DNA from: an uncultured Clostridia bacterium | GTDB taxonomy: Bacteria > Bacillota > Clostridia > Christensenellales > Borkfalkiaceae | Length of the DNA: 64,000 nucleotides | Assembly: GCA_947629515.1 (NCBI GenBank) | Contig: CANRDY010000001.1 | Span: forward strand, 24,948 to 88,947 | Direction of reading: 5' to 3' | Part shown: positions 8,011 to 63,521 of the stretch, in pieces | How positions within the stretch are numbered: position 1 is the stretch's first letter | How the letters are laid out: every line of letters begins with the position of its first letter | Made by a program: the position numbers and the translations under genes | The notes under the pieces: model-generated | What the model was told of the DNA's origin: nothing | The model's input: the letters and a program-made list of their open reading frames with translations, nothing else | The model's database searches: none

Positions 8011-8034
8011 AATGGCAAAATTGAAATTTTGCCA

Positions 8035-15862: not shown

Positions 15863-15863
15863 G

Positions 15864-18950: not shown

Positions 18951-19023
18951 ACGAAAATTATAACATATGCGCGCAAGCATTTCAATTGTTTTGGCAATAT
19001 TTGTGAAAAAGTATGGGAAGGGC

Positions 19024-20892: not shown

Positions 20893-21036
20893 CAAAAAAG
20901 TTGCGCCGTACCGCCGCAAGGGAAGGGGAGCGAATGGGGCAGGGTATGCGCGCGGGCGACTTTGCAAGAACGAAGTGCCTTATGTCGCTCCGATATTATT
21001 GGAAAGCGCGCGGGCGTTGAAACGCCCGCGCGCATA
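20893..21036 (+). repeat. fragments of modules A, E, C-tip and I in the divergent spacer upstream of veg
   Basis: AAAAGTTGCGCCGTACCGCCGCAAG; GGAAGGGGAGCGAATGGGG; AGTGCCTTATGTCGCTCCGATATTATTGGAAAG; hairpin GCGCGCGGGCGTTGAAACGCCCGCGCGC. Confidence 0.75.
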
Positions 21037-21066
21037 TTTTTGATAAAAACAGGCAACAATAATTGT

Positions 21067-21327: not shown

Positions 21328-21352
21328 CAGTGGAATGGTTTGGGGGGGGTAA

Positions 21353-21632
21353 AAGTGCCATAAGGTGCTCCGATAGCATTTAAAAATACTCCCCCCTCTT
21401 CAATTCTCCCCCCTCGCAAGCGAAGGGGGAGGGTTGGGTATGGGGAGTGCGCGAAAGGGGTAGTTAAATGCGCTCGGTTGCCCTTGCCAGAACGAAGTTA
21501 GAAAGTTCGAAGAAGCAAGTTATGCAAGGAAAGCGAGGAAAACCCGAAGGAGTTTACTATAAGGTAAATGACTGAGGGTTGCCGCAGCTTGACACAGCAG
21601 AACGACGCATATACGAAGTTTAACGGGAGCTA
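21353..21632 (+). repeat. composite repeat: C-tip, E, F, G; last nt shared with stop codon of 21630-22142
   Basis: AGTGCCATAAGGTGCTCCGATAGCATTTAAAAA; CTCCCCCCTCGCAAGCGAAGGGGGAGGG; F unit; GCATATACGAAGTTTAACGGGAGC-TA. Confidence 0.9.
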
Positions 21633-22142
21633 AAAGTCCTCGTCGTCATCGTCATCATCCTCGTCATCATCCTCGTCATCGTCGTCAAGATCGTCATCGT
21701 CGCCGAGGTCGTCGAGAGGATCGACTTCGTCGAAGAACTCGTCGTCGTTTTCGTCGGTCTTGTCGTCGTCGCCGTCGAACTCTTCGGCAAGCTCCTCTTC
21801 AAGCTCCTCGCCGTCGACGGTAAGGTCGCTCTCGTCCTCGTCGAGGTAGTTCTTCCACTCCTCGTCCTTTTCGATATCGACGTCCTCTTCTTCCTCGTAC
21901 TCCTGTTGAAGCCGACAGTTCTCGCACATCTTTTCGCCGTAGCGTATGGGGTTGACGCCGCACACGGGGCAGACTTCGCTCTGTTCAAGCTCTTCGTCAA
22001 GCTCCTCGTACTCTTCCTCGTCGAGGTCGGCAAATTGCAGGCGGTTGCCTTCAAGCTCTGCCTTGCACACGTCGCAGTACTGCTGTTTTTCGCTGTCGAT
22101 ATAGTTAAGTTCGCATCTCGGACACTTGATATACTTTATCAT
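21630..22142 (-). CDS. zinc-ribbon protein with long poly-acidic C-terminal half
   Basis: 170 aa. CPRC...CDVC and CPVC...CENC pairs. C-terminal ~90 aa are almost entirely D/E. Confidence 0.6.
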   Translation of the reverse strand: MIKYIKCPRCELNYIDSEKQQYCDVCKAELEGNRLQFADLDEEEYEELDEELEQSEVCPVCGVNPIRYGEKMCENCRLQQEYEEEEDVDIEKDEEWKNYLDEDESDLTVDGEELEEELAEEFDGDDDKTDENDDEFFDEVDPLDDLGDDDDLDDDDEDDDEDDDDDDEDF

Positions 22143-24831: not shown

Positions 24832-25314
24832 ATGTTTTTGGAAAAATCAACCCTTTTGAACTTACTTAAAGCCATCGACGCTTTGCAGAAGGGAAGTTCC
24901 GCCCAAAACGCGGGCGGCGAAAATAACGGCGGCGATCCCTCGCCCGACCTCTTCGGGAGCAATTACGGAAGTTTTGAAAATGCGAACGGCGGAGAACGCG
25001 GGGGCGCGAACGGCGGAGAACGCGGGGGCGCGAACGGCGGTTCGGGAAGCGGCTTCGGGGGCGGCTTCGGGGGCGCGAACGACCGACGCGGCTTTGACAG
25101 CGGGCGCGGCGCGGGTGAAGCGCGCGGCGGATCGGGGGGCTTTGGCGGAAACGGCGTGAACGGCGGAAAAGTTTTGAACGGCGGTTCGGGAAGCGCGGGC
25201 GCGCCGACGGGCGGGAGTTTGCCGAGCGGGTTTGTCGATATGCCGAACTTTATGTACGAGGCGTTGGTGCGCCACGAGCACGTGCGCAACAGAATCAAAA
25301 AGAGAAAAGAGTGA
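24832..25314 (+). CDS. hypothetical Gly-rich low-complexity protein
   Basis: 160 aa. Structured ends (MFLEKSTLLNLLKAIDALQKG... and ...FVDMPNFMYEALVRHEHVRNRIKKRKE) flank a G/N/S-rich core that includes a tandem NGGERGGA repeat. Start could be the TTG at 24838, which has better SD spacing. Confidence 0.5.
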   Translation: MFLEKSTLLNLLKAIDALQKGSSAQNAGGENNGGDPSPDLFGSNYGSFENANGGERGGANGGERGGANGGSGSGFGGGFGGANDRRGFDSGRGAGEARGGSGGFGGNGVNGGKVLNGGSGSAGAPTGGSLPSGFVDMPNFMYEALVRHEHVRNRIKKRKE

Positions 25315-25385
25315 AAAGGTTGCGCTACGCGCAAGGGAAATTTTTGCCTAACGGCAAAAGTGAAATTTGCGGCGTACCGCCGCAA
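25311..25385 (+). repeat. A array (3 hairpins); first linker GTGAAAA contains the TGA stop of 24832-25314
   Basis: GTGAAAA gg TTGCGCtacGCGCAA GGGAAAT TTTTGCCtaacGGCAAAA GTGAAAT TTGCGGCGtacCGCCGCAA. Confidence 0.85.
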
Positions 25386-26050
25386 GCGTTCCGCTTGAGC
25401 GGCGTGTCGCCGCGGACGGGCGTCTTAACGACGGGGAAGTAAGACGGCGGAAAGGCTGTTCAACGGGAAGCGGCGGGGCGCGTTTGCGCCCCGCCGCATT
25501 TTTAAATAATAACTGTCACCCTGAGCAAGCGAAGCGCGTCGAACGGGTCTATTCCGCAGTATAGCGGAGCTTTTTATAAGGTGAATATTATTTGGAAGTG
25601 TTAACGCGTTTCAAAGTGCAAGCACAGACCACCTTGGGATTATCTCACTCAATCCCGCGCCTACGGCGCGTGTCATGTCGTTCGAAATGACAGTGCCATA
25701 ATGCGCTCCGATATTATTTGGAAGTCCTACCCCCACCCTGCCCTCCCCCTCCAAATGGAAGGGGAGGAATGGGCGATTGTTAGGTTGCTGTACGAAGTGA
25801 GAAACTTTGGAGGCGAGCGGGGATTTCTCAAAACAGCGGACACCCGCTGTTTTGCCCCGCGAGGTGAGCTTGCGCATAGTGCAAGGCGCAAGCGGTGACC
25901 GAGAACGGCGTTTTTCCTTGCGCCGTTCGAGAAGCGAGCAGAACGAGGAGCGCGAGCAGTTTGCGAGGGAGCTTACAATGACGTAAGTGACCGAGCAAAA
26001 GCGGAGCGCGACAATGTTATGCGAAGCATATACGAAGTTTAACGGTAGCC
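25386..26050 (+). repeat. composite repeat: B, I, D (25505-25570), C (25604-25724), E variant, F with nested H (25813-25933), G
   Basis: Each module matches the copies listed in the summary key. Ends 4 nt before the stop of 26055-27365. Confidence 0.9.
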
Positions 26051-26054
26051 GAAA

Positions 26055-27365
26055 TTAACACAACGAATTAACGCGCCTGTAATCATCCCTCAACAAGCTG
26101 ACGTTAGTGGCAAGCTGACTGCTGCTTTCGCTTTGGTGCTTCATAAACTCGTTTGCAATATTCTGCCTGCTCGATATCCGCGCAAGATAAGCCGTATGCA
26201 CTCCCTGCGTTATCTGTATATTTGTTACTTTGGTATCTATGCGGTCGACCTTGCTGTCTAATCGGTCTACCTTGGCTTCAACACTGCCTATATAACCGCA
26301 GATCTTAGCCGACTCTTCGGCGACCATTTCGGAAATTCTATCGAAATTCTGCTGTAAGCTGTGCTGTATTCTGTCGGCGTTGTCTTTGATGGTTTCGCAA
26401 ATTCTGCGCGTTGCCTCTTGCATGGTATCGACTATCCTCTGCGTTTGCTCCTCGCGGTCGGCAAGTTGCAACGACTCTTTCATGCTTTCGGCGCGCCCCG
26501 TCTCGAATGTGTAGATCATGTAGTCCACGTATTTCCAATCGCGCGGGTTCAAAAAATCTCCGTAAAGTTTTTCGAGTGCGGAATAAAAAACCATTGCATT
26601 GGAAATTATCGCATTGGCTTTCCTCTTCTCTTCGTCAAGTTCGCTATCTGCCTTCTGCACTTCCTTGTTGTAACTTTCCTCGGCACTGTTGAAAGAATAT
26701 CTTGCGTTTTCAGCCGATCGCTCCGCACGGCGACGTTGCTTGCTATATCGTCCCGCACTAAATAAGTAACCAAAAGAGCGACGAAAATTATGCCACGCGC
26801 TGCCTACATTATCTGAGATTTGTTTGTCGTCTATAAACCATTTATACATTAGATAACCTAAAACCGCCGTAAGTCCTCCGCATACAAGCGGCGCGAGAAA
26901 GAAAATAGCGTACATCCAACCCTCAGGTATAGACGCAAGAAAATACCCGTACCAACCGTATGCTACTTCCATCCAGCCGGAATCCAAATGAAATAAATAA
27001 TTAATTAAACTTCCTAAAACGATTGTCAAAAAATACAAAGTAGCTCCGGCAAACGCAAGCAGTAACGCTATCAAAAATAATGAAAGTAAAGTCCATGCCA
27101 ATGCTTTAATAAAGTCAAGCGGCAATCTGTTTCGTGAGTTTTTAGCAGAATTTTCTCTTTCCTCTTTTTCGTCAAAATATTCTTCCGCATCGTTCAATTT
27201 TGATTGTGCAACCTGCAAACGCTCTTCCGCCGCACGAAGTTTTGCTTCGTGCTCAGACTGCGCGCGCGCCGTTATGTCGTCGCTCTTCTGCTTTTCGCTC
27301 GCCAAAACGCACATGCCCGCCCTTACCGCATATAGCTTGGTAACAACTTCGTTTACGCTTTCCAT
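26055..27365 (-). CDS. hypothetical membrane protein with N- and C-terminal coiled-coil regions
   Basis: 436 aa. AAGGAG SD. Central block of ~4 hydrophobic helices. Visibly AT-richer than neighbouring genes. No family recognised. Confidence 0.6.
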   Translation of the reverse strand: MESVNEVVTKLYAVRAGMCVLASEKQKSDDITARAQSEHEAKLRAAEERLQVAQSKLNDAEEYFDEKEERENSAKNSRNRLPLDFIKALAWTLLSLFLIALLLAFAGATLYFLTIVLGSLINYLFHLDSGWMEVAYGWYGYFLASIPEGWMYAIFFLAPLVCGGLTAVLGYLMYKWFIDDKQISDNVGSAWHNFRRSFGYLFSAGRYSKQRRRAERSAENARYSFNSAEESYNKEVQKADSELDEEKRKANAIISNAMVFYSALEKLYGDFLNPRDWKYVDYMIYTFETGRAESMKESLQLADREEQTQRIVDTMQEATRRICETIKDNADRIQHSLQQNFDRISEMVAEESAKICGYIGSVEAKVDRLDSKVDRIDTKVTNIQITQGVHTAYLARISSRQNIANEFMKHQSESSSQLATNVSLLRDDYRRVNSLC

Positions 27366-27452: not shown

Positions 27453-27662
27453 ATGAAAATTATGGTTGCCGAAAGGCTGAAAGATTTAATGGACGAGCAG
27501 AACCTCAATCAGGTGGCGTTGGCAAAAAAGATAGGCGTTAAGCAGAACACGATAAGCGCGTGGCTGTTGAAAAAGAAAGAGCCGTGCATTACGAGTTTGT
27601 GGCTTGTAGCCGACTACTTCGGCGTGGATATTGACTATTTGGTGGGAAGAAAGGAATATTAA
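27453..27662 (+). CDS. XRE-family helix-turn-helix transcriptional regulator
   Basis: 69 aa. LNQVALAKKIGVKQNTISAWLLKKKEP...LVADYFGVDIDYLVGR is a canonical HTH_3 (Cro/C1) domain. Confidence 0.8.
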   Translation: MKIMVAERLKDLMDEQNLNQVALAKKIGVKQNTISAWLLKKKEPCITSLWLVADYFGVDIDYLVGRKEY

Positions 27663-27667
27663 AAATA

Positions 27668-28345
27668 ATGCGGCGGGCACTTTTCAAAGTGCCCGCCGCA
27701 AGCGTTCCGCTTAACTATGTGTCTTAACGACGTGAAAGTAAAACAGCGGAAAGGCTGTTCAACACGAGGGCTGACCCCCTCCCTTGTATTCCCTCCCCCT
27801 GTTCTTTCTTCTATTCCCTCCCCTTCCGTTTCGGAGGGGGAGGGCGAGGGTAGGGGTGGCGGGAGTGCATAAGGGGCAATGAACGTACAATTTTTCGGTT
27901 CGCGTTTCAAAGTGCAAGCACGGACCACGGGGGGATTCTCTCACTTAATCGCCCGCGCATTTATGCGCGGGTCTCATAGCGTTCGAAATGACAGTGCCTT
28001 ATGTTGCTCCGATATTATTTGAAAGTGCACCCCCTCAGTCCGCGTTCGCGGACAGCTCCCCCTCTCGGCAAGCCGTGAAGGGGAGCGAATGGCGCGGGCG
28101 GAAGTATGGTTGCCCTTGCAATTACGAAGTGAGAAAGCCCGCAAGAAGCAAGTTATGCAAGGAAAGCGAGGAAAACCCGAAGGAGCTTACAATGACGTAA
28201 GTAACTGAGGGTTGCCGCAGCTTGACACAGCTTTATGTTGAACAGCTCAAACGCTCGGCTACCCCAACGCTGTTAAGACACTTGGTCAAGCGGAACGCTT
28301 GCGACGCATATACGAAGTTTGCGGCAGTTATACGAAGTTTACGGG
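27668..28345 (+). repeat. composite repeat: I, B, E (long), C (27900-28026), E, F, inverted B, G x2; overlaps the last codons of 28339-28983
   Basis: GCGGCGGGCACTT/AAGTGCCCGCCGC; CAAGCGTTCCGCTTAAC...GGCTGTTCAAC; CCCTCCCCTTCCGTTTCGGAGGGGGAGGG; remaining modules as in the key. Confidence 0.9.
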
Positions 28346-28983
28346 AGTTTCAAAGCTATCATCAGAACGATCGGCGCACGGGCATACTCCTCCTCCGCAA
28401 GCCGCCGCTCTTCACAGTCGGAATAGTCGCGCTCGATCGAGGGATAGTGCAACCTTATCTCCGTCTCTTCCGAAATGTCCTTTTCTCTGTCGACTTCGGT
28501 CACCGTGTAAAGTTTCTTCTCGCCGCCGCACGTCAAAAGCAAGCCGTCGCCCTCGCCGATATACCTCAACTGCGGCAAGTCGTCAAGCTCTATTTCGCCT
28601 TTTCGCGCACGCTCGAAAACCTTTTTTGTCACTTCGAGTTCGAACTGCTCGCGCACGTCTTCGGGAACAAACCCGAATCTGTCGAACCGCTCTGCGGGGT
28701 ATACGGGATCGCGCACGTCGAATGCGTACTTGGCATAGTCCATTCTGCCGAAAAGCCCGTGCGCTTCAGCCATGATTTCCCCCCAACACCTCTGCGAACA
28801 GCGAAAAGCCTTGCCGTCGTTGAGGACGGGCGCGCACAGCAAACTCTCCTGATGCGCCCAGCCCGAAAACATATAACCGTGCGCTTTTATGTCGTCTATA
28901 ATGGCGTTCCGCGCCGCCCAGAATGTGTTTACCTCGCCGATATCGTCGTCGTATTCCGTCCAGCCCACTACTCTGTATTTCAT
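28339..28983 (-). CDS. hypothetical protein
   Basis: 214 aa. GGTGGAG SD. The last four sense codons plus stop (LKLP*) lie inside repeat module G. No family recognised. Confidence 0.55.
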   Translation of the reverse strand: MKYRVVGWTEYDDDIGEVNTFWAARNAIIDDIKAHGYMFSGWAHQESLLCAPVLNDGKAFRCSQRCWGEIMAEAHGLFGRMDYAKYAFDVRDPVYPAERFDRFGFVPEDVREQFELEVTKKVFERARKGEIELDDLPQLRYIGEGDGLLLTCGGEKKLYTVTEVDREKDISEETEIRLHYPSIERDYSDCEERRLAEEEYARAPIVLMIALKLP

Positions 28984-30520: not shown

Positions 30521-31061
30521 ACATTGAAATTTTTTTGCGAGAATTGTGAAATTTTTGCGCGGGTGCGGGGGAAAGGGACGGGACGCTTACTCAATAGCTT
30601 ATTTTTTGATACCGTTTCAAAGTGCAAGCACGGACCACCTTGGGATTCTCTCGGTCAATCCCGCGCCTACGGCGCGTGTCATATCCCTCGAAATGACAGT
30701 GCCATAATAAGCTCCGATAATATTTGAAATGCTCCCCCCTCTTTAATTCTCCCCCCTCGCAAGCGAAGGGGGGAGGGTTGGGTATGGGGAAGTGCGCGAA
30801 GGGGGAGTTTAGGGCGTTCGGTCGTCCTTGCAATTACGAAGTGAGAAACTTTGTAGATGCGAGCAGAACGAGGAGCGCGAGCAGTTTGCGAGGAAGCGTA
30901 CACAGAAGTACGTAACCGAGCAAAAGCGGAGCGCGACACAGCTTTATGTTGAACAGCCTATCCGCCGTATTACCTCAACGCTGTTAAGACACTTGGTCAA
31001 GCGGAACGCTTGCGAAGCATATACGAAGTTTTCGGGAGTATACGAAGTTTAACGGGAGCTA
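30521..31061 (+). repeat. composite repeat: A fragment, C (30611-30729), E, F, inverted B, G x2; last nt shared with stop of 31059-32033
   Basis: Modules as in the key. Terminal sequence GCATATACGAAGTTTTCGGGAGTATACGAAGTTTAACGGGAGC-TA. Confidence 0.9.
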
Positions 31062-32084: not shown

Positions 32085-32262
32085 ACAAGCGTTCCGTAAG
32101 CGTTCCGCTTAATCAATGGGCGGCGTGTCGCCGCGGACGGGATTCTTAACGGCGTTAAGATAGACAGCGTGTCGGCTGTTCAACAAGCGTTCCGCTTGAC
32201 CATGTGTCTTAACGGCGAGGAAGCAATACGGCGGATCGGCTGTTCAACTTAAATTTTAAGTG
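32085..32262 (+). repeat. module B, about 2.5 tandem copies
   Basis: CAAGCGTTCCGTAAGCGTTCCGCTTAATC...GGCTGTTCAAC CAAGCGTTCCGCTTGACCATGTGTCTTAACGGCG...GGCTGTTCAAC. Confidence 0.85.
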
Positions 32263-32329
32263 TGCGCGGACAGTTAAGGCGCGAACTTTACGTTTGGCGC
32301 AGTACCGTTGCAAATTTACGCTTAAATAC

Positions 32330-32358
32330 TTGACAAACGAAAAACAATGTCGTAAAAT
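32330..32358 (+). promoter_or_regulatory. consensus sigma-A promoter of small RNA 1
   Basis: TTGACA - 17 nt - TAAAAT. Confidence 0.65.
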
Positions 32359-32364
32359 AAAATC

Positions 32365-32446
32365 ACAAAGGGGAACCCAAAGCGGTTGACCTCGACAAGT
32401 TTAAAAAATAACCGTCAAGCTATCAACTATCGGCGGTTATTTTTTT
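32365..32446 (+). ncRNA. predicted ~80-nt non-coding RNA, 3' end antisense to small ORF 1
   Basis: Runs from the predicted TSS (~7 nt after the -10) to the bidirectional terminator. No ATG in the transcript. Paralogous to 35668-35757. Confidence 0.4.
32403..32446. terminator. bidirectional intrinsic terminator shared by small RNA 1 and small ORF 1
   Basis: AAAAAATAACCG ... CGGTTATTTTTTT: A-run/T-run-flanked stem usable on both strands. Confidence 0.65.
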
Positions 32447-32544
32447 ACGCGCTTAATCGCTATGTACTCGACTTCGTCGAGCAACAGCTCAAGCTGTTTA
32501 AGGAGCTCGCAGAGTTGCGATACTAATTCGCTAAACTCGGTCAT
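32437..32544 (-). CDS. small ORF 1, 35 aa (MTEFSELVSQLCELLKQLELLLDEVEYIAIKRVKK)
   Basis: AAAGGAGGTG SD 8 nt upstream of ATG 32544. Stop codon lies inside the terminator stem. Paralogue at 35748-35852. The track lists a longer 97-aa frame that reads through repeat H. Confidence 0.45.
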   Translation of the reverse strand: MTEFSELVSQLCELLKQLELLLDEVEYIAIKRVKK

Positions 32545-32599: not shown

Positions 32600-32704
32600 C
32601 TTCTCGCGCGGCGTAAGGAGCAACGCCGCGCTCGGTCACCGCTTGCGCATTGCACTATGCGCAAGCTCATCTTACACAAGAAAACAGCGGGTGTCCGCTG
32701 TTTT
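32600..32704 (-). repeat. module H (inverted relative to other copies), between promoter and SD of small ORF 1
   Basis: Matches 25833-25933 and 36335-36433 in reverse complement. Contains AAAACAGCGGacacCCGCTGTTTT. Confidence 0.85.
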
Positions 32705-34654: not shown

Positions 34655-34714
34655 GCTGTTTTGTGTTGCGTTTACAAACTTTTTTATTTATTTTTCGAAT
34701 ACATAAAAATTCAA

Positions 34715-34802
34715 GCGTTTTAACGGCGTTGAGGTAATACGGCGGGTCGGCTGTTCAACGGGAAGCGGCGGGCACTTTGCAAGTGCCCGCCGCCGCAAGC
34801 GT
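34715..34802 (+). repeat. partial B plus I hairpin
   Basis: CAAGCGTTTTAACGGCGTTGAGGTAATACGGCGGGTCGGCTGTTCAAC; GCGGCGGGCACTTTGCAAGTGCCCGCCGC. Confidence 0.8.
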
Positions 34803-34810
34803 TCGGATAT

Positions 34811-35008
34811 TCAGTCTGTTTCGCCGACGGATACCGAAAAGGTCTGACCGTTGGAAAATTCCATTTTAAATCCCCCGCTCAAAATTCTGAATTTACAGCA
34901 AAACAGCTCCTCTGCCGCCGTGTACAGCTCCTGCGTAAGACTGCCCGCCGAAAACCTCGCCTCGTTCTCCAAACCGTCGCGGTCGACGGTCTTTTTTCTT
35001 TCGTCCAT
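34811..35008 (-). CDS. hypothetical small protein (65 aa)
   Basis: AAAGGAGAAG SD 5 nt upstream of the ATG. Divergent from the tandem-HTH gene. No family recognised. Confidence 0.45.
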   Translation of the reverse strand: MDERKKTVDRDGLENEARFSAGSLTQELYTAAEELFCCKFRILSGGFKMEFSNGQTFSVSVGETD

Positions 35009-35581: not shown

Positions 35582-35632
35582 GGCGGCGGGCGTTGATACG
35601 CCCGCCGCACAATAAAAAATTTCGCAATATGC

Positions 35633-35661
35633 TTGACAAACGGAAAGCAATGTCGTAAAAT
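35633..35661 (+). promoter_or_regulatory. consensus sigma-A promoter of small RNA 2
   Basis: TTGACA - 17 nt - TAAAAT; near-identical to 32330-32358. Confidence 0.65.
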
Positions 35662-35667
35662 AAAATC

Positions 35668-35757
35668 ACAACAAGGGCTTGCCCTAAACGGTCAGCCCCG
35701 TCGGCTAATTAAAAAATAACTGCCTTCCGCGACTAAACTTTGGGCGGTTATTTTTTT
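35668..35757 (+). ncRNA. predicted ~90-nt non-coding RNA, 3' end antisense to small ORF 2
   Basis: From the predicted TSS to the bidirectional terminator, with no ATG. The first ~25 nt resemble both small RNA 1 and the 5' UTR of small ORF 2. Confidence 0.4.
35711..35757. terminator. bidirectional intrinsic terminator shared by small RNA 2 and small ORF 2
   Basis: AAAAAATAACTGCC ... GGCGGTTATTTTTTT. Confidence 0.65.
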
Positions 35758-35852
35758 ATTGTCAAAAAGATTTTATCTTTTGTGACGCGGACGACCTCTA
35801 TGTACCCCTCGTCGAGTAAACTCAACAAAAAGGTTATAAGCTCGATCCTCAT
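35748..35852 (-). CDS. small ORF 2, 34 aa (MRIELITFLLSLLDEGYIEVVRVTKDKIFLTIKK)
   Basis: Hand translation (below the ORF-track length cut-off). AAAGGGGGTG SD 8-9 nt upstream of ATG 35852. Stop lies inside the terminator stem. Shares the LLDE..YI...(R)V.K pattern with small ORF 1. Confidence 0.45.
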   Translation of the reverse strand: MRIELITFLLSLLDEGYIEVVRVTKDKIFLTIKK

Positions 35853-35918
35853 AAAAATTTCACCCCCTTTACGGGGCATGATTAACCGCCTTCGGGAAAC
35901 CCTTGTTGCTTGGATTTT

Positions 35919-35947
35919 ATTTTAGTATTATTGTTTTAATTTGTCAA
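35919..35947 (-). promoter_or_regulatory. consensus sigma-A promoter of small ORF 2
   Basis: Minus strand TTGACA - 17 nt - TAAAAT. Confidence 0.65.
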
Positions 35948-35966
35948 GAGGTTTTTTTATTGAAGT

Positions 35967-36631
35967 GCGCGCGGGCGTTTGAGAACGCCTGCGCGCGTAT
36001 ATTATGTTGTATTACATTATTATTTAAATATGAGTTCGCGTTTCAAAGTGCAAGCACGAACCACGGGGTCGAGTGCGGCGGTGTTCCTTACGCCGCGCGA
36101 GAAATTCTCTCGCTCAATCCCGCGCCTACGGCGCGCGTCATATCCCTCGAAATGACAGTGCCTTAATGCGCTCCGATAATATTTGAAAATGCTCCCCCCT
36201 CTTTAATTCTCCCCCCTCGCAAGCGAAGGGGGAGGGTTGGGTATGGGTAGGGCGCGAATGGGGAGTTTAGTGCGCTTGATTACCATTGCAATTACGAAGT
36301 GAGAAAGTTCGAAGGCGAGCGGGGATTTCTCAAAACAGCGGACACCCGCTGTTTTGCCCCGCGAGGTGAGCTTGCGCATAGTGCAAGGCGCAAGCGGTGA
36401 CCGAGCGCGGCGTTGCTCCTTACGCCGCGCGAGAAGCAAGCAAGACAAGGCGAACGAGCGACGACCGCAGGGAGTGTACAATGAAGTAAATGACTGAGCA
36501 AAAACGTAAGCGCGACACTGCTTTATGTTGAACAGCCTATCCGCCGTATTACTTCCCCGCTGTTAAGACACTTGGTCAAGCGGAACGCTTGCGACGCATA
36601 TACGAAGTTTACGGGCTTTGCGGTAGCTTAT
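35967..36631 (+). repeat. composite repeat: I, C (36036-36190, carrying a partial H hairpin at 36070-36103), E, F with nested H (36315-36433), inverted B, G; ends 4 nt before alaS stop
   Basis: Modules as in the key. Confidence 0.9.
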
Positions 36632-38431
36632 TTACTCTAAAATTGCTTTAATGCGCTTAACTCCCGCCGACACGTTCTCCTGCTTGACGATTTTGAATAC
36701 GCCCAGCTCGCCCGTGCTTTTGGCGTGCGGTCCGCCGCAGATCTCCCGCGAAAAATCGCCTATAGAGTAGGTCTTTACCCTTTCGCCGTACTTGCTTTCG
36801 AAAAGCCCCACAAACCCGCGCGATTTGGCTTCGTCGTAGCTCATCTCTTCCATAACGACGGGCACGTCCTTTTGTATCTGCCCGTTGACAAGCTCCTCTA
36901 CCGCCGTCACCTCTTCGGGCGTGAGCTTGCGCGAAAAGTTAAAGTCGAACCGAAGCCGCTCTTCGGTGATATTGCTGCCTTTTTGCTCTATGTCGGGCGA
37001 GAGCACTTTTTTGAGAGCGGCGTGCAAAAGGTGGGTGGCGGTGTGCAGGCGGGTGGTCTCTTCCTTGTGGTCGGCAAGCCCGCACGCAAACTTAGCCTCG
37101 CTCCCCGCGCGGCTCTTTGCCTGATGCTCGGCGAACGCGGCGGCGTAACCCTCCACGTCGACTTCAAGCCCCTTTTCCCTCGCCATTTCGCCCGTTATTT
37201 CGACGGGGAACCCGTAGGTATCGTAGAGGTGGAACGCCGTTATTCCGTCTATCTTTCCCCCTTGGGGGAGAACGGCGGCAACTTTTTCGAACTCCTTTAA
37301 GCCCTGTTGAAGGGTGCGCGAGAACTTGCCCTCTTCCTTTTCGAGTTCCTCGTATATCTTTGAGGAATTTTCGGTAAGTTCGGGGTAGACCTCGGCGTAT
37401 TTATTTATTATGGCGGAGGCGATGTCCTTTAACGAACCCTGCGCAAGCCCGATATTTCTGCCGAAGCGCACGGCGCGCCTTATTATTCTGCGAAGAATGT
37501 AGCCCTGATCGGTGTTCGAGGGCACTATCCCCTTTTTGTCGCCGAGCATAAACACGGCAGTGCGCGCGTGGTCGAGCACGACGCGGAACGCGCGGGTAAC
37601 TTCGCCCCCCTCGGAATACTTCCTGCCCGTCAGCTTTTCGATAACGGCGATCGCCTCTTCGAAGATGTCGGTCTCGTAAACGCTCTCCTTTCCGCCCAAA
37701 ATGCAGAGGGTGCGTTCAAGCCCCATGCCCGTGTCGACGTTGCGCTGTGCGAGCGGTTCGTACTTGCCCTCGGCGTTCTTGTTGTACTGCATGAACACGT
37801 CGTTCCATATTTCGAGGAACGTGCCCGCGGGGGCTTTGTCGAAGTCGAACGCCCCCAGCTTGTCGGCTTCGGCGTGGTTGCGGATTATGTGCATTTCGGT
37901 ATCGGGACCGCACGGACCGGTAGTTCCCGCGGGTCCCCACCAATTGCCCGATTTGGGCAAGAAGAATATGTGCTCTTTTTTTATACCGCATTCAAGCCAG
38001 AGCTTCGCGCTCTCCTCGTCGCGCGGGCAGTCGCCGTCGCCCGCAAAACAGGTAACGGCTATGTCGTCGGAGGGTATCCCCAGATACTTGGGCGAGGTAA
38101 GAAACTCGTAAGACCACGGTATCATCTGCTCTTTGAAGTAGTCGCCGAGCGACCAGTTGCCCAACATTTCGAAGAAAGTACAGTGCGCGCTGTCGCCCAC
38201 CTCGTCGATATCGCCCGTGCGCACGCACTTCTGCACGTCGCAAAGCCGCCTGCCCGCGGGGTGCTTTTCGCCCAAAAGATAGGGCACAAGGGGGTGCATG
38301 CCCGCGGTGGTGAACAGAACCGTGGGGTCGTTTTCGGGAATGAGCGAGGCGGACGGTATGACCGCATGCCCCTTCTCCGCAAAAAAGTCAAGATAGAGTT
38401 TGCGCAGCGTTCGGCTTGTAAAATTTTTCAT
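36632..38431 (-). CDS. alaS: alanine--tRNA ligase, short form (599 aa; ends after editing domain, no C-Ala domain)
   Basis: LRKLYLDFFAEKGHAVIPSASLIPENDPTVLFTTAGM, FFEMLGNWSLGDYFK, editing-domain HTATHLLH and CGGPH motifs. Confidence 0.9.
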   Translation of the reverse strand: MKNFTSRTLRKLYLDFFAEKGHAVIPSASLIPENDPTVLFTTAGMHPLVPYLLGEKHPAGRRLCDVQKCVRTGDIDEVGDSAHCTFFEMLGNWSLGDYFKEQMIPWSYEFLTSPKYLGIPSDDIAVTCFAGDGDCPRDEESAKLWLECGIKKEHIFFLPKSGNWWGPAGTTGPCGPDTEMHIIRNHAEADKLGAFDFDKAPAGTFLEIWNDVFMQYNKNAEGKYEPLAQRNVDTGMGLERTLCILGGKESVYETDIFEEAIAVIEKLTGRKYSEGGEVTRAFRVVLDHARTAVFMLGDKKGIVPSNTDQGYILRRIIRRAVRFGRNIGLAQGSLKDIASAIINKYAEVYPELTENSSKIYEELEKEEGKFSRTLQQGLKEFEKVAAVLPQGGKIDGITAFHLYDTYGFPVEITGEMAREKGLEVDVEGYAAAFAEHQAKSRAGSEAKFACGLADHKEETTRLHTATHLLHAALKKVLSPDIEQKGSNITEERLRFDFNFSRKLTPEEVTAVEELVNGQIQKDVPVVMEEMSYDEAKSRGFVGLFESKYGERVKTYSIGDFSREICGGPHAKSTGELGVFKIVKQENVSAGVKRIKAILE

Positions 38432-44939: not shown

Positions 44940-45216
44940 TTCGAGGGCTTTGCCCGACCCCTCGCCAAAGGCGAGACCGAAGCAAGCAAACTTCTAATAA
45001 TAACTGTCACCCTGAGCAAGCGAAGCGCGTCGAACGGGTCTATTCCGCAGCATAACGGGGTTTTTGTAAGGTGAATATTATTTGGAAGTGATAGCGCGTT
45101 TCAAAGTGCCCCGAGCAGACCACGGGGGGATTCTCTCACTCAATCCCGCGCCTTTGGCGCGTGTCATATCGTTCGAAATGACAGTGCCTTAATGTGCTCC
45201 GATATTATTTGGAAGT
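44940..45216 (+). repeat. composite repeat: D-like, D (44996-45060), C (45094-45216); C tip supplies the stop codon of 45205-45966
   Basis: AACTGTCACCCTGAGCAAGCGAAGCGCGTCGAACGGGTC; CGTTTCAAAGTGCCCCGAGCAGACCAC...CCGATATTATTTGGAAGT. Confidence 0.9.
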
Positions 45217-47703: not shown

Positions 47704-47784
47704 CAAACGTCGGGGCAGGTTTACCGCCGACAAAAGTCGGAGTAGGTTTATAGCCGACAAACGTCGGGGTCGGTTTATTGCCGA
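47704..47784 (+). repeat. 27-nt tandem repeat, 3 in-phase copies, upstream of gltX
   Basis: CAAACGTCGGGGCAGGTTTACCGCCGA / CAAAAGTCGGAGTAGGTTTATAGCCGA / CAAACGTCGGGGTCGGTTTATTGCCGA. CCGACaaaaGTCGG hairpins straddle the unit junctions. Confidence 0.9.
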
Positions 47785-47843
47785 TAAATAACGGCGCAAA
47801 TATAAGGCGTTGCGGTTGGAAGTTCGCCCTTATATATGCGCAT

Positions 47844-50045: not shown

Positions 50046-50630
50046 TGATTGCGCAAAAAAGTGAAATGAAAAAGTATGCGGCGGGCACTTTGAAAAGTGC
50101 CCGCCGCTATTTCCGATAATAACTGTCACCCTGAGCAAGCGAAGCTCGTCGAACGGGTCTATTCCGCAGTATAGCGGAGTTATTATAATAAGGCGGTTAT
50201 TATTTAAAATAGGGTACGCGTTTCAAAGAGCAAGCACGGACCACAGGGGGATTCTCTCACTCAATCGAACCCGCTATCGCGGGATTCTTATGTCGTTCGA
50301 AATGACAGTGCCATAATGTGCTCCGATATTATTTAGAAGTGCTTGAACGAAGTAAATTGCAATTACGAAGTGAGAAACTTCGGAGATGCGAGTTATGCAA
50401 GGAGCGCGCGGATTTTGCGATAGGAGCTTACAATGAAGTAAGTGTCGTACCGAAGGCGTTAGCCTTACCGAGCAAAAACGCAAGCGCGACACCGTTTTAT
50501 GTTGAACAGCCTATCCGCCGTATTACCTCAACGACGTTAAGACACTTGGTCAAGCGGAACGCTTGCGAAGCATATACGAAGTTTAACGGGAGCAAAGCGC
50601 GCGGGCGCGGCAAACGCCGCGCCCGCGCGC
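50046..50630 (+). repeat. most complete composite repeat: A fragment, I, D (50115-50180), C (50216-50340), F, inverted B, G (ends 50593), I hairpin (50597-50630)
   Basis: Modules as in the key. Fills almost the whole degV / LMW-PTP spacer. Confidence 0.9.
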
Positions 50631-50656
50631 GCCAAAAAACACCTTTTTTCTTTTTA

Positions 50657-51900: not shown

Positions 51901-51949
51901 GTCCACCAACGCCCCGCGACGCTTTATGCGTCGCGGGGCGTTGGTGGAC
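51901..51949 (-). terminator. 22-bp perfect hairpin following and including the tmRNA 3' end
   Basis: Minus strand GTCCACCAACGCCCCGCGACGC ataa GCGTCGCGGGGCGTTGGTGGAC. Confidence 0.7.
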
Positions 51950-52324
51950 GAGTCGGGACTTGCACCCGAGTCTTGACGGTGTCGTCGGAGCTTTCTACAT
52001 ACTTATTCCGCCTTTGGCTTGACCGCGCTTCCCGACGGACGGGGCGGGCGCGGGGCAGACCGCAAAAAATTTTGCACGGGCGCGCGCGGTCGGACGCGCG
52101 CTGTGCTATCCGTTAAGATGACGCTCTGCGCCGTCAACGGAATACGGCGCAAAACGGACCGCTTTAAGTTAAGCGGCGAGCGCGCAGCTTGCAGCTCTGT
52201 ACGAGGGGAAAGCTACGACTTTTTCGCTTTTATCTGCGTTTGAATTTAGTTTCCGTTTTTACAAAGCCGAGCCTTTGGTATGCTTTTCTCCTTCTCTTCC
52301 GCCAATCGAATCTGAAACTCGCCC
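51942..52324 (-). ncRNA. ssrA: tmRNA (ssrA), ~383 nt
   Basis: Minus strand 5' GGGCGAGUUUCAGAUUCGAUUGG... and 3' ...UCGGGUGCAAGUCCCGACUCGUCCACCA. The 7-bp acceptor stem GGGCGAG/CUCGUCC has a G3.U70 pair, followed by discriminator A and encoded CCA. Internal tag frame GCA GAU ... GCG CUC GCC GCU UAA (52237-52169) ends ...ALAA-stop. Confidence 0.8.
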
Positions 52325-55477: not shown

Positions 55478-56686
55478 ATGAAATATGTAGTTGTGCTCGG
55501 CGACGGAATGGCAGATTGGAAAATGGACAGCCTCGGCGGCAAGACCTGCCTTGAAAAGGCAAAAACGCCCGTTCTGGACGGCATTGCGCCCCGCTCGGAA
55601 GTGGGGCTGTGCAAGACCGTGCCCGCGGGAATGAAGCCGGGGAGCGACGTGGCGAATATGTCGGTGATGGGCTTTAACCCCGCCGATTTTTACACGGGGC
55701 GTTCCCCCCTCGAAGCCGTTTCGATGGGAATAGATTTGAAGCCCACCGACGTGACGTTGAGGTGCAACCTCGTCACCCTTTCGGACGGCGGGGCTTACGA
55801 GGATAAGACCATGCTCGACTATTCGGCGGGCGAGATATCCACCGAAGAGGCGCGGGAACTTATAAACTTTTTGAAGGATCATCTGGACGGCGGGGGGTTT
55901 ACTTTTTACCCCGGCATTTCGTACCGCCACTGCCTTGTTGCCGACTGCGGAAAGACGGGGCACACCCTTACCCCGCCCCACGATATTTCGGACAGAAAGA
56001 TAACGGAGTACCTTCCCAAGGGCGAAAATGCGCATATATATTTAGATTTTATGAAAAAGAGCTACGAATTGCTCAAAGACCACCCCGTAAATTTAAGGCG
56101 GAAAGCCGAGGGCAAAAACCCCGCCAACAGCATTTGGCTGTGGGGCGAGGGCACGAAACCCGCGCTCGAAAACTTTGAAAAACTGCGCGGGTTAAAGGGC
56201 GGAGTTATTTCCGCAGTCGACCTTGTTAAGGGCATCGGCATGCTTGCGGGAATGAAGATAATCGAGGTCGAAGGATCGACGGGAGAATATCACACCAACT
56301 TCCTCGGCAAGGCGAACGCCGCCGCCGACGCGCTCATCGGCGGGTTGGATTACGTATATATCCACATGGAAGCCCCCGACGAGTGCGGTCACCACGGCGA
56401 CCCCGAGCACAAGATCTATTCTATCGAGCAAATCGATTCGAAGGTCGTAAAGACCCTTTTGGAGAGGCTGAAAGGGGAAAGGTTTGCAATGCTCGTCTGC
56501 CCCGACCACCCCACTCCCTGCGCCTGCAAAACGCACGTCTCCGACCCTATACCCTACCTTATTTACACAAACACAAAAGACCTCGGCAACGGCGCGCCGC
56601 GCTACACCGAGGACGAGGCGGCAAAGACGGGCGAGTACGTCGCCGACGGCTACAAGCTCATCGAAAAGCTGTTGGGGATAAAGTGA
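55478..56686 (+). CDS. apgM: cofactor-independent phosphoglycerate mutase, archaeal-type (ApgM family)
   Basis: MKYVVVLGDGMADW start, HMEAPDECGHHGD, metalloenzyme-superfamily blocks. 402 aa. Confidence 0.8.
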   Translation: MKYVVVLGDGMADWKMDSLGGKTCLEKAKTPVLDGIAPRSEVGLCKTVPAGMKPGSDVANMSVMGFNPADFYTGRSPLEAVSMGIDLKPTDVTLRCNLVTLSDGGAYEDKTMLDYSAGEISTEEARELINFLKDHLDGGGFTFYPGISYRHCLVADCGKTGHTLTPPHDISDRKITEYLPKGENAHIYLDFMKKSYELLKDHPVNLRRKAEGKNPANSIWLWGEGTKPALENFEKLRGLKGGVISAVDLVKGIGMLAGMKIIEVEGSTGEYHTNFLGKANAAADALIGGLDYVYIHMEAPDECGHHGDPEHKIYSIEQIDSKVVKTLLERLKGERFAMLVCPDHPTPCACKTHVSDPIPYLIYTNTKDLGNGAPRYTEDEAAKTGEYVADGYKLIEKLLGIK

Positions 56687-56840
56687 GTTTTTGCTAACGC
56701 AAAAGTGAAATTTTTTTGCGTAAGCAAAAAAGTGAAATTTGCGGCGTGCCGCCGCAAGTGAAATTTGCACTTCGTGCAAGTGAAATTTTTGCCTTACGGC
56801 AAAAGTGAAATTTTTTGCGCTATCGCGCAAAAAGTTGTGG
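56683..56840 (+). repeat. A array, largest copy: 7 hairpins; first linker GTGAGTT contains the TGA stop of apgM; closed by GTTGTGG
   Basis: Stems TTTTGC, TTTTTTGC, TTGCGGCG, TTGCAC, TTTTGCC and TTTTTGCGC, each with a perfect complement. Loops taac/gtaa/tgc/ttc/ttac/tatc. GTGAAAT linkers at 56705, 56732, 56758, 56780 and 56805. Confidence 0.9.
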
Positions 56841-57200
56841 TAAAAATTATGCGGCGGGCGCCGCGGTAACCCCCCACCTTTCATTCCTCCCCCTTGTAAT
56901 TTCTCCGCCCAATATTCCCTCCCCTTTCTCAAGGGGGAGGGGAGGGTAGGGGTTTTTCTTATAATATCGGAGCATATTAAGGCACTGTCATTTCGAGGGA
57001 TATGACACGCGCCGTAGGCGCGGGATTGACCGAGATAATCCCAACGTGGTCTGTGCTTGCTCTTTGAAACCAACACCCACATTTCTGTAATAATTACTCC
57101 GCTATGCTGCGGAATAGACCCGTTCGACGCGCTTCGCTTGCTCAGGGTGACAGTTATTATTATAATGCGGCGGGCGACTTTTCAAAGTCGCCCGCCGCTT
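56841..57200. repeat. composite repeat with inverted modules: I, E, inverted C (56957-57072), inverted D (57097-57160), I hairpin
   Basis: E is in the usual orientation, but C and D are reverse-complemented relative to all other copies. GCGGCGGGCGACTT/AAGTCGCCCGCCGC hairpin at 57168-57199. Confidence 0.9.
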
Positions 57201-57228
57201 CATATTTTTATATACGCTTTATATCCTT

Positions 57229-58269
57229 TCACGCAACGGCGTTGCCCTCTGGGAGAGATTCGCCCTCTTCGCTCTTGCCGCCCGAAACTTTCGCCTTGTA
57301 GCTTCTGTAATTGATAATATTGAGCACCATAACGGCGAACGCAACGCAGGTATAGGCATATCCCCCGCCGGCTATCGTCCAGCCGATGTCCCAAGAATAT
57401 CTCAAAAACAACAGATAAACAGTGTTCAAAGTCAACGAAACGAGCACGGAAATAACGGTGCATACCGCCGCAACCACCGTCGAAACGCAGAGTTTGCGCA
57501 GGCTGTCCTTGCCTCTGAAATGCCCGAACGCCTTTGCGGTGTTATAGGCGAGAGTGCCGAATGAGAGAACATAGAAATAACCGAGCGTTATGAGCAGAGC
57601 TATAAGGTAACCGTTCATAAGATAGGGATATCCCGTCTCCGCTTGATGTCTGCTCAGAACCTGCGCAAACAAACCGAAAATCACGGGCGCATACGCCGCA
57701 ACATACACCGCCATAAGCGAGAGGAAAGCGGTCGAGGCGATGAGCGTTACCTTGCGCAATGTGTCGCGTCCGAAACTTTCTGCGCTTTCCGAGGCTATAA
57801 GTTGGGGTTTATACTTGTTGAAGTTGACAATGTGAAGTATTATCGCGGCAACGTAAACCGCCGTGAACACAAGCCCGCCGCCCGCTATGCAGACACTTGC
57901 GGCAGTGAATGTGCGGAACGACGTAAGAAAGAGCAGATTTGCGACAAAGGAAGTTACGACCCCGAAAACGCCGAGAACGGCGGCGACCAACAGCGCGTTG
58001 CGCAAAGAGGGCAAAACGCTTTCGCCCCTCTGCGCCTTTAACGCAAAAACCGTGAGGGGAATAAGGGGTATCGCAAGCAACAGATACGCTGTGATGAGCG
58101 GCAGAAAATTCGAGACGTACAACGCCCGCACGGCTAAAAGCTCGGTCATGGGCAGTTGAGGTATCATCGACGTGGCGAACGAGCAAAACAGCGGAACGAA
58201 CGCCGCGGTATACGTCCACGCCATGCACGTCAATATGAACGCCGACAGAAAGACTTTACTGTTTTTCAT
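57229..58269 (-). CDS. hypothetical polytopic membrane protein (~10 TM helices)
   Basis: 346-aa ORF, strongly hydrophobic throughout. No family recognised. Confidence 0.6.
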   Translation of the reverse strand: MKNSKVFLSAFILTCMAWTYTAAFVPLFCSFATSMIPQLPMTELLAVRALYVSNFLPLITAYLLLAIPLIPLTVFALKAQRGESVLPSLRNALLVAAVLGVFGVVTSFVANLLFLTSFRTFTAASVCIAGGGLVFTAVYVAAIILHIVNFNKYKPQLIASESAESFGRDTLRKVTLIASTAFLSLMAVYVAAYAPVIFGLFAQVLSRHQAETGYPYLMNGYLIALLITLGYFYVLSFGTLAYNTAKAFGHFRGKDSLRKLCVSTVVAAVCTVISVLVSLTLNTVYLLFLRYSWDIGWTIAGGGYAYTCVAFAVMVLNIINYRSYKAKVSGGKSEEGESLPEGNAVA

Positions 58270-62837: not shown

Positions 62838-62888
62838 ATTATTTGAGTCCTTGTTTTGGGGAACCTTTTGTTCCCCGATGGGAGTATG

Positions 62889-63098
62889 TAAACGTTCCGT
62901 TTAATCAAGTGTCTTAACGGCGTTGAGGGAAAACGGCGGAGCGGCTGTTCAACGCGAGCAAGCGTTCCGCTTGACCATGCGTCTTAACAGCGTTGAGGGA
63001 AAACGGCGGAACGGCTGTTCAACGCGAGCAAGCGTTCCGCTTGACCATGCGTCTTAACGGCGTTGAGGGAAAACGGCGGAGTGGCTGTTCAACGCGAG
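62889..63098 (+). repeat. module B, three tandem copies with exact 70-nt period
   Basis: Units at 62889-62958, 62959-63028 and 63029-63098. The last two differ at only 3-4 positions. Confidence 0.9.
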
Positions 63099-63521
63099 AG
63101 GTGACCCCCTCCCTTGTGTTCCCTCCCCCTGTTCTTCCTTCCATTCCCTCCCCTTCCGCCTCGGAGGGGGAGGGCGAGGGTAGGGGTAGCGGGAGTGCGC
63201 GAATGGGGAGTTTAGGGTGCTCGGTCGTCCTTGCAATTACGAAGTGAGAAAGTTCGAAGAAGCAAGCAAGACAAGGCGAACGAGCGACGACCGAAGCGAG
63301 TGTACAATGAAGTACACGAACAAGGCGGAGCGACGTTCAACACAGTATTGCGTAGCTTATTCGAGCTTTGCGGAAGCTGTACGAAGTGAGAAACTTTGTA
63401 GATGCGAGTTATGCAAGGAGCGCGCGGATTTTGCGAAAGGAGCTTACAATGACGTAAGTGACTGAGCAAAAACGCAAACGCGACACCGCAGAACGAAGCA
63501 TATACGAAGTTTGCGGCAGTA
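63099..63521 (+). repeat. composite repeat: E (long), F, second F variant, G; right end abuts clpP stop codon
   Basis: CCCTCCCCTTCCGCCTCGGAGGGGGAGGG. F at 63222-63375 matches 15712-15862. F at 63376-63490 matches 50355-50480. GCATATACGAAGTTTGCGGCAGTA. Confidence 0.9.

Follow-up and report, generated by a model that had tools for sequence, protein, structure and literature searches.

Whether the repeats that fill the intergenic spacers of a bacterial chromosome are assemblies of independent modules or copies of a single element is the question raised by the degV/LMW-PTP spacer (50046-50630) of an uncultured gut Clostridia bacterium. The stretch analyzed here, referred to as the window, comprises 64,000 nt of contig CANRDY010000001.1, and the first-pass annotation had described in it an ordered, co-oriented, multi-module interspersed repeat present at ten sites. 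The repetition of these 0.25-0.9 kb composites, their module order, polarity, common hairpin, nested segments, mosaic joins and abutment on stop codons were all observed, and they are most simply read as copies of one polar element. The strand of the element corresponds to the plus strand of the window. With a probability of about 0.5, we read it as a lineage-specific polar mosaic element, non-coding and non-autonomous, of the kind represented by BIME, BOX, NIME and ERIC, which colonizes the 3' flanks of genes and whose hairpin is under selection, probably for a role at 3' ends.

Repeat content, module order and polarity

By self-BLAST, 8,527 bases of the window were repeated within it; 16 intergenic blocks, covering all ten sites listed at first pass, held 7,305 of them. 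The module density of ~12% estimated there was borne out, with ~7.3-8.5 kb or 11-13% of the window. Profiles were seeded from the 50046-50630 copy, hereafter the reference copy, and iterated with nhmmer, with further families being searched after masking of the first ones; E-values reached 1e-41. Module C gave 14 matches, all on the plus strand except the one at 57071-56955, while the 13 matches of module F and the ~9 credible matches of module G were every one on the plus strand. Module D had four matches (three plus, one minus, the inverted one being paired with the inverted C). Module B had 14, including four inverted copies, each located between F and G, and ten forward copies, among them a threefold tandem of a 70-nt unit at 62890-63096. 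The GC-palindrome family I1 occupied ~7 sites in the window. The families found after masking were the C-run/G-run hairpins E1, E2, E3 and J, the GC palindromes K2, module H (~85-100 nt, made of three perfect hairpins) and arrays of GUGAAAU-spaced hairpins (Gut-1-like).

At every site where modules co-occurred, they followed the order (Gut/B/J/D) - C - E(0-2) - F - (inverted B) - G. The ordered and co-oriented repeat proposed earlier was therefore recovered by both self-BLAST and nhmmer profiles, and its uniform plus orientation, apart from one inverted C-D pair, held for C, F, G and D. The reference copy is organized as follows.

50068-50110, no strand: I1, a GC-rich palindromic hairpin (GCGGCGGGCAC-loop-GTGCCCGCCGC) directly after degV, terminator- or REP-like (nhmmer, both strands)
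50116-50204, plus strand: module D (nhmmer E ~1e-28)
50214-50341, plus strand: module C, ~125 nt, with its core (TCGAAATGACAGTGCC..GCTCCGATATTAT) at 50302-50330
50365-50592, plus strand: F-G unit, a conserved leader (ACGAAGTGAGAAA) followed by a long imperfect hairpin (RNAalifold, covariance model, pair counts), with two insertions in this copy, an extra 22-nt hairpin (50445-50466) and an inverted B (50498-50565)
50498-50565, minus strand: module B (nhmmer and alignments), a segment of 68-70 nt lying within the F-G 3' arm
50594-50630, no strand: K2/I2, a GC palindrome that separates G from the stop codon of LMW-PTP (50657), terminator-like for this minus-strand gene; the K2 profile match extends over 50595-50647

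Some details of the earlier description had to be revised. More complete copies than the reference copy exist: it lacks E, H, J and Gut, and the spacers 14792-15863 and 35582-36631 are richer in modules. Its two flanking hairpins, assigned at first pass to one family I, belong to I1 (50068-50110) and to the K2 type (50594-50630). The statement that modules occupy almost every spacer longer than 150 nt was too broad (17 of 26, counted on a gene map curated from Pfam), but all 16 spacers longer than 300 nt contain them. The fixed order of the modules is real but does not require independent modules to be assembled by rule: the simplest account is a single polar element whose copies have diverged through deletion, insertion and recombination. 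On the 5' side, the copies began variously with full arrays, with a complete C, at C position 45-48 or 84-100, or without any C, and F-G was kept at ten sites.

An assembly artefact, or chance similarity among GC-rich terminators, can for all practical purposes be excluded as the source of the repeats. Part of the likeness between I1 and K2 elements may be compositional, as both are simple GC hairpins, but the low module E-values and the 11 occurrences of the motif CAAGTGTCTTWACGG, compared to 0.18 expected, do not fit chance. Short-read contigs of the same species in ENA (L001, L082-L084; 1.6-4.6 kb), from four samples, matched the window at 99.8-100% identity and spanned gene/composite junctions before terminating inside repeats. 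The composites are thus not an assembly artefact, since independent contigs reproduce the junctions. Short-read assemblies break at a repeat density of ~12%, which helps explain the absence of the lineage from reference genome sets.

L083 was the only discordant contig: its positions 1-172, aligned with window 36264-36435, read the alaS composite as C-E3-E2-F (F of class b, see next Section) rather than C-E3-F/H, a form matched at 100% by no other copy in the window. It may be a strain-level structural variant, but it is indistinguishable from a short-read chimera and therefore provides no clear case of strain polymorphism.

The other sites of the window, listed below, hold full, shortened or fragmentary copies and solitary modules.

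1153-1470, plus strand: C tail, E1, E2 and F-G (1331-1467); G adjoins the GerAC stop (1468)
5719-6236, no strand: fragmentary array with three C fragments (plus), a GC palindrome, I1 and an inverted Gut-1-like array
7766-8012, plus strand: degenerate C tail, E1 and F-G (7872-8008); the M50 peptidase stop lies 24 nt beyond (8035)
15005-15863, plus strand: the longest array, with B, Gut-1-like, B, J, C, E3, E2 and F-G (15724-15861); G is 2 nt from the aminotransferase stop (15864)
19023-19187, plus strand: shortened copy with a GC palindrome, C positions 45-124 and E1
20973-21049: extra C tail and GC palindrome
21352-21632, plus strand: C tail, E3 and F-G (21492-21629); G adjoins the stop of the open reading frame (ORF) 21630-22142
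25309-26054, plus strand: Gut-1-like, B, D, C, E, F 5' arm, H (25844-25926), remaining F, and G, 6 nt from the stop of ORF 26055-27365
27632-28347, plus strand: I1, B, J, C, E1, F, inverted B, and G tandem-duplicated (20-nt unit)
30561-31058, plus strand: C, E3, F, inverted B and two G; adjoins the stop of a choloylglycine-hydrolase-family gene (31059)
32094-32253, plus strand: two forward B in tandem, upstream of a hydrolase gene
32606-32690: solo inverted H
34711-34829, no strand: partial forward B and I1 palindrome, upstream of rplM
36017-36631, plus strand: GC palindrome, C (with an extra hairpin), E3, class b F 5' arm, H (36346-36430), class c F 3' arm, inverted B, and G, 5 nt from the alaS stop (36632)
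44992-45216, plus strand: D-C only, the C tail overlapping the final codons and stop (45205) of a CmpB-like gene
56617-57222, no strand: convergent spacer after the plus-strand iPGM gene, with Gut-1 arrays, I1, J, inverted C (56955-57071), inverted D (57071-57160) and I1
62870-63521, plus strand: clpP-clpX spacer, with three tandem B (62890-63096), J/E and tandem F-G hairpins (63239-63376, 63381-63519); G is 2 nt from the clpP stop (63522)
25506-25592, 44997-45083 and 57071-57160 (the last inverted): other D copies, each immediately 5' of C
28234-28301, 30945-31012 and 36524-36591: inverted B in the same position and orientation as in the reference copy

The F-G hairpin and the C core

F and G had been described as separate modules; RNAalifold instead resolved F-G as a single imperfect hairpin of ~125 nt, in which F is the 5' arm with the apex and G the 3' base. 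In an alignment of 11 F-G copies (A10), from which the nested segments were first excised, the hairpin comprised 36 pairs with 92.4% of cells paired, compared to 27-42% when partners were slid. Compensatory changes on both sides were present in 16 of the 36 pairs, and the covariation score (0.373, compared to 0.186 after shuffling) was reached by none of 500 shuffles. The copies formed three sequence classes (a, b and c), with the fold being common to all. Single copies had z-scores of -4.9 to -7.3 on the plus strand and -2.2 to -4.4 on the minus strand. As this preference persisted with DNA parameters, it does not single out RNA. G-U pairs outnumbered A-C mismatches (19 against 13), and one G-U pair was retained in 9 of the 11 copies.

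The nested segments occupied constant places: four copies had inverted B at an identical position in the 3' arm, and two had H at an identical position in the 5' arm. Downstream of alaS, the hairpin is broken because a class b 5' arm is joined to a class c 3' arm. Mosaicism is real, as ~97%-identical E3 copies were found joined to F-G of classes a, b and c as well as to this b/c hybrid.

The sequence TACGAAGT occurred 20 times in the window, on the plus strand only, at the start of F and in G, and forms a direct repeat internal to the element. Eleven of its bases match a loxP arm, which is probably a coincidence. The 3' half of G (TATACGAAGTTTNCGGNAG, 19-20 nt) was tandem-duplicated at 28300-28347, 31011-31058 and 36590-36631. 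Two further resemblances, of D to a hammerhead and of G to loxP (TATACGAAGTT), were rejected on reading of the sequences, as core motifs were absent or incomplete and no recombinase was found.

Upstream of the hairpin, module C (~125 nt) was strongly conserved in sequence (alignment A1) and not significantly structured (z-scores of -0.7 to -1.9). Its core, the most conserved 40 nt of the element, carries ATGACA-17-GAT(A/T)(A/T)T, with sigma-70-like -35/-10 spacing, in 11 of 11 full C copies (GATATT in the reference copy), always oriented toward E/F/G. To judge from its sequence, it looks like a sigma-70 promoter and/or a protein-binding site facing into the element. Module D was also conserved in sequence, and its folding was inconsistent (z-scores of +0.8 to -3.8). 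Module B combined a small covarying hairpin with a conserved motif, CAAGTGTCTTAACGG, found 11 times in the window compared to 0.18 expected by chance.

A second promoter-like sequence, TTGAAA-16-AATAAT, was located on the minus strand at the left edge of C (25585-25614, 36019-36046, 45075-45104 and 50199-50226), directed away from the element, toward the next gene or D. The inverted C-D copy has a less clear equivalent at 57156-57185.

Such features could also belong to multicopy genes for non-coding RNA (ncRNA), with the C core as promoter and E plus F-G as an RNA of ~230-330 nt that ends at the hairpin base, by the stop of the convergent gene; the RNA, or convergent transcription itself, would then regulate or insulate the neighboring gene. 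The compensatory changes, the better plus-strand fold and the retained G-U pair speak for this explanation, as does the presence in all full C copies of a promoter-like core with the right orientation and distance in the most conserved stretch. The position of the reference copy, between terminator-like hairpins of both flanking genes, is also compatible with an independent transcript. However, the core matches only 9-10 of 12 bases of the -35/-10 consensus, its -35 half is missing from three G-bearing copies, the arms are mismatched in one copy, and the strand preference is shared by DNA. Moreover, about ten near-identical small RNA (sRNA) genes within 64 kb would be unprecedented, and the mosaic decay of the copies resembles that of selfish DNA. 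We consider this explanation unlikely, though not negligible.

Placement at gene ends and nature of the element

The placement of the composites was compared with the genes of the window, which were told apart from other ORFs by Pfam scans. At seven sites, a gap of 0-7 nt separated the end of G from the stop codon of a gene on the minus strand: GerAC (1468), a class-V aminotransferase (15864), a choloylglycine-hydrolase family protein (CBAH; 31059), AlaRS (36632), ClpP (63522) and two unannotated ORFs (21630 and 26055). The G end was never within the ORF. The two exceptions ended at 8008, with the M50 peptidase stop 24 nt further, and at 50592, with an intervening GC palindrome. This abutment, absent from the earlier description, was the strongest positional regularity observed. 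F-G was confined to '--' and '+-' spacers and always lay beside the 3' end of a minus-strand gene. The inverted C-D pair keeps the usual polarity relative to its upstream gene, since it lies downstream of the plus-strand iPGM gene.

In spacers between tandem genes, the composite leaves 33-150 nt to the next start codon (e.g. clpP/clpX), and some copies are therefore probably transcribed through on the minus strand. The reference copy lies outside the likely transcripts of its neighbors, since it is placed between the terminator-like hairpins of both. Together with the plus-strand fold preference and the inward promoter-like core, this position points to the plus strand as the sense strand of the element.

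The alanyl-tRNA synthetase gene beside one composite (36632-38431, minus strand) encodes a short form of 599 aa, ending right after the second additional domain. Its shortening by the element was rejected, as this form can be aligned over its full length with AlaRS from many lineages of bacteria and archaea, and in the closest relatives the protein ends no more than 1-2 codons away.

The placement and polarity of F-G would also be covered if its plus-strand hairpin were a single-stranded DNA (ssDNA) substrate of recombination or transposition, recognized by a recombinase or an HUH/Y1 transposase encoded elsewhere, in the manner of integron attC sites or of IS200/IS605/REP-RAYT ends. A hairpin of attC-like length right after stop codons, in a single orientation and in divergent classes with structure conserved over sequence, agrees with such a role, and so do the plus-strand preference with DNA parameters, the recurrence of TACGAAGT on this strand and the tandem duplication of G at 2-3 sites. 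On the other hand, direct reading of the sequences revealed no RYYYAAC/GTTRRRY core sites, and no integrase, Y1 or HUH gene was present in the window. The neighbors are housekeeping genes (alaS, clpP, gerAC) rather than cassettes, and the hairpins of IS200/IS605 and REP are much shorter. As the distance to the stop codon varies over 0-7 nt, there is no fixed cleavage or target motif. This role appears improbable. An integron attC identity was rejected, as the R''/R' core motifs were absent (some copies have GTTTAAC, none with a matching GTTRRRY) and no recombinase was found.

The shared 3' end (G) and the shortening of copies from the 5' side raise a further alternative, that of a retro-mobile SINE-like element in which incomplete reverse transcription of a plus-strand transcript, primed at the target, would trim the copies. 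The retention of F-G at ten sites with a variable 5' limit, and a promoter-like core inside the element, are as expected for such a mechanism, but copies shortened on the 3' side also exist (the one at 44992-45216 is limited to D-C, the one at 19023-19187 to C and E1), and internal deletions would give an equal pattern. In addition, the window encodes no reverse transcriptase (RT), and neither a poly-A or intron-like signature nor an Rfam match to a group II intron was found. This origin is very improbable.

The preferred reading remains that of a non-autonomous polar mosaic element. Its anatomy would comprise first, on the upstream side, hairpin arrays that need not be present (Gut-1-like, forward B, J or D), then C with its core facing inward, then 0-2 E hairpins, and finally the ~125-nt F-G hairpin against the stop codon of the convergent gene. 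New copies would arise by trans-mobilization through an enzyme encoded elsewhere and/or by recombination or gene conversion between copies, and would then decay by internal deletion. F-G would be kept by selection for its work at gene 3' ends, possibly as a terminator, insulator or 3'-end stabilizer between the transcript of the host gene and a transcript started at the C core.

Several observations weigh against this interpretation. No candidate mobilizing enzyme was seen within the window, and the composite as a whole has neither terminal inverted repeats nor target-site duplication. Past G, the flanks are unrelated between sites apart from the YTA stop triplet; F-G is an imperfect inverted repeat over its full length, and the left ends of the composites vary. 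Mobility is inferred, as are the transcribed strand and the function. The 488-nt reference composite folds no better than dinucleotide shuffles (z-score of ~-0.5 on both strands), so that the earlier term 'hairpin-rich' holds for particular modules only and not for C, D or the whole composite. F-G has no canonical U-tract on either strand, and a terminator role is therefore weakly founded. It is also 5-13 kcal/mol more stable on the strand antisense to the adjoining gene, which fits poorly with a simple role as a 3' untranslated region (3'-UTR) element. The 11 promoter-like sites are not independent evidence, since the C copies are one repeated sequence. Lastly, polarity with respect to gene direction is inseparable from polarity with respect to replication direction, because most genes are on the minus strand and only a single C-D copy is inverted; GC skew of the window was uninformative on replication direction.

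In a bolder reading, each composite would be autonomous and non-coding, with the C core as a promoter of its own, transcribed convergently toward the adjoining gene, spread genome-wide through RNA or ssDNA and anchored at its 3' end, which would make it a bacterial SINE-like 'selfish sRNA gene'. We regard this as distinctly unlikely; if true, it would cap the 3' ends of a large share of the genes and set their termination and antisense landscape. With its one polarity, stop-anchored end, long hairpin in three covarying classes and promoter-like conserved core, the family is a clean system in which the terminator or insulator action of such elements, and the identity of their mobilizer, become testable questions.

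Known repeat systems, relatives and other features of the window

The kind of element to which the composites are assigned is well known (PMC3184786), and the analogy drawn at first pass with BIME, BOX and Correia elements was apt; at the sequence level, the family is new. It departs from the classical examples by uniform polarity and order over 64 kb, a stop-anchored end, a 125-nt hairpin in covarying classes combined with a promoter-like segment, and a ~12% density at which every long spacer between housekeeping genes is filled.

Like BIMEs, the composites are non-coding intergenic mosaics of a few hairpin units and linkers, in many copies, at gene 3' ends and in operons. The roles of BIMEs include mRNA 3'-end stability and protein binding, and the behavior of BOX, SPRITE, ERIC and BIME at 3' ends has been reviewed (PMC3184786). 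However, REP units are 20-40 nt long and alternate in orientation, whereas the modules here are 70-130 nt, with C, F, G and D co-oriented in fixed order, and include a 125-nt hairpin and a sequence-conserved non-hairpin C, without sequence similarity to BIMEs. Short alternating palindromes characteristic of REP/BIME were not found, only I1 and K2 being REP-like, and the ORFs of the window encoded no domain of RAYT, the cognate Y1 HUH enzyme (TnpA-REP) whose gene REPs usually flank.

With RUP and SPRITE set beside them, pneumococcal BOX elements (boxA - boxB x n - boxC), compared by architecture only, share a Firmicute host, an A-Bn-C modularity with variable internal modules, a size range of 67-637 bp and predicted RNA structure. 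In contrast, the present family has at least 10 module families, uniform polarity over the window and a stop-abutting end. Pneumococcal repeat families are not known to occupy more than a few percent of the DNA, compared to ~12% here.

ERIC resembles F-G in length (~127 bp compared to a ~125-nt imperfect palindrome) and in carrying extra segments at fixed internal positions. F-G likewise sits in 3' flanks of genes that are probably transcribed, a setting in which ERIC alters mRNA decay (PMC3184786). Unlike ERIC, Correia and RUP elements, the composites have no TA or other target duplication, and F-G is only part of a larger polar composite; it also forms covarying classes instead of one consensus, in uniform orientation, whereas ERIC and Correia occur in both orientations. 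No parent insertion sequence (IS) with matching ends, as expected for a transposable element of the miniature inverted-repeat type (MITE), was present in the window, and DNA pattern scans gave no match. In Enterococcus faecalis, the EFAR repeats lie within ~20 bp of stop codons.

NIMEs, compared by description, are also intergenic arrays of different modules with mosaic recombination between copies. Their RS modules are delimited by a 20-bp recombination site, dRS3, but no equivalent repeat common to all joins was found here, GCGCGAA and TACGAAGT being present at some of them only. As for attC sites (e.g. the Vibrio cholerae repeats), the likeness lies in a species-specific hairpin of ~60-140 nt, 3' of ORFs, in a single orientation and with one strand folding better. 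F-G is indeed a structured hairpin immediately 3' of ORFs, with structure conserved over sequence, but R''/R' motifs, IntI and attI are missing, and the neighboring genes (alaS, clpP, gerAC, an aminotransferase and a hydrolase) have ordinary spacing and are not promoterless accessory cassettes. IS200/IS605-derived PATEs, which have short subterminal hairpins at both ends, a fixed 4-5-nt target 5' of the left end and TnpA(Y1)/TnpB, are not a match either, given the ~125-nt hairpin, the stop distance of 0-7 nt and the absence of a TnpA/TnpB domain from the window.

The modules had gone unrecognised at first pass, and this was largely upheld by Rfam searches with 4,227 covariance models, for which both the gathering threshold and a cutoff of E<=1 were used. 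Even the latter gave no match for modules D, C, E, F, G, B, H and J; over the whole window, only tmRNA, Gut-1 and three chance-level matches outside the modules were returned, with no ribozyme, intron, riboswitch, 6S or IS605/HEARO-type motif. The hairpin array next to the modules, on the other hand, does match a described family of candidate ncRNA. Gut-1 (RF01706) exceeded its 50-bit gathering threshold at 15155-15243 (plus strand, 52.3 bits) and 56730-56816 (plus strand, 56.5 bits), with a match below threshold at 6054-6133 (minus strand, 47.7 bits) and a further Gut-1-like match at 25320-25388. All are arrays of GUGAAAU-spaced hairpins within the same mosaic spacers, distinct from modules D, C, E, F, B and G. 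Human gut metagenome reads are the only source from which Gut-1 has been described, and no function has been assigned to it (PMC2864571). The window places this orphan motif in a genomic context, within intergenic repeat arrays, and since its matches sit inside mosaic spacers, Gut-1 may be a component of repeat arrays rather than a stand-alone sRNA gene.

Searches beyond the window yielded no further copies. The exact pattern of the C core had zero matches in GTDB representative genomes, JGI metagenomes and IMG/VR, collections that do not contain the source genome; the same was true for the B pattern in JGI metagenomes and the F pattern in IMG/VR. Whole composites had no match in plasmids or phages (blastn, distant setting), and a six-frame translation of the modules, in the form of a 1,058-aa concatenate of long open frames, had none among 5.8 billion proteins. 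The closest genomes by AlaRS were uncultured Clostridia metagenome-assembled genomes (MAGs) with 81-82% identity, and no modules were detected at the relatives' loci, either by nhmmer (80 loci) or by the F-G covariance model (22-23 loci).

The closest relative with usable flanks (L003, positions 9651-9974 and 2102-2312; MAG BRZ_FK__bin22, AlaRS 81%) has its own 119-nt tandem hairpin repeats, which start exactly at a stop codon upstream of alaS. A related unit in it carries CAAGTGTCTTTACGG, the conserved motif of module B, and this shared motif hints that B-like units may predate the composite.

In agreement with the first-pass annotation, none of the ~70 ORFs scanned in the window contained a transposase, integrase, RT or RAYT domain. 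Three ORFs of 759, 436 and 346 aa (22430-24709, 26055-27365 and 57229-58269, all on the minus strand) had no Pfam, NCBIfam or PDB sequence match and were rejected as mobilizing enzymes; at least the last two lie beside composites.

Some other features of the window were noted. Tandem repeats unrelated to the modules were present at 2917-3119 (units of 45/66 nt), in the overlap between the gerAC and spore-permease ORFs, and at 10545-10641, 19248-19324 and 47704-47788 (units of 39, 32 and 27 nt, respectively). A full-length tmRNA gene was located at 51942-52324 (minus strand; Rfam, 106.7 bits) and was not reported by ARAGORN. Finally, a duplicated unit of ~130 nt (32324-32446 and 35627-35757, with a partial inverted copy at 35870-35949) possessed a perfect TTGACA-17-TAAAAT promoter and a terminator-like hairpin. 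Both copies are convergent with small ORFs on the minus strand and overlap their 3' ends (32437-32544, 35 aa; 35748-35879, 43 aa), and each unit with its ORF may represent an sRNA paired with a small protein, in the manner of type I toxin-antitoxin systems.

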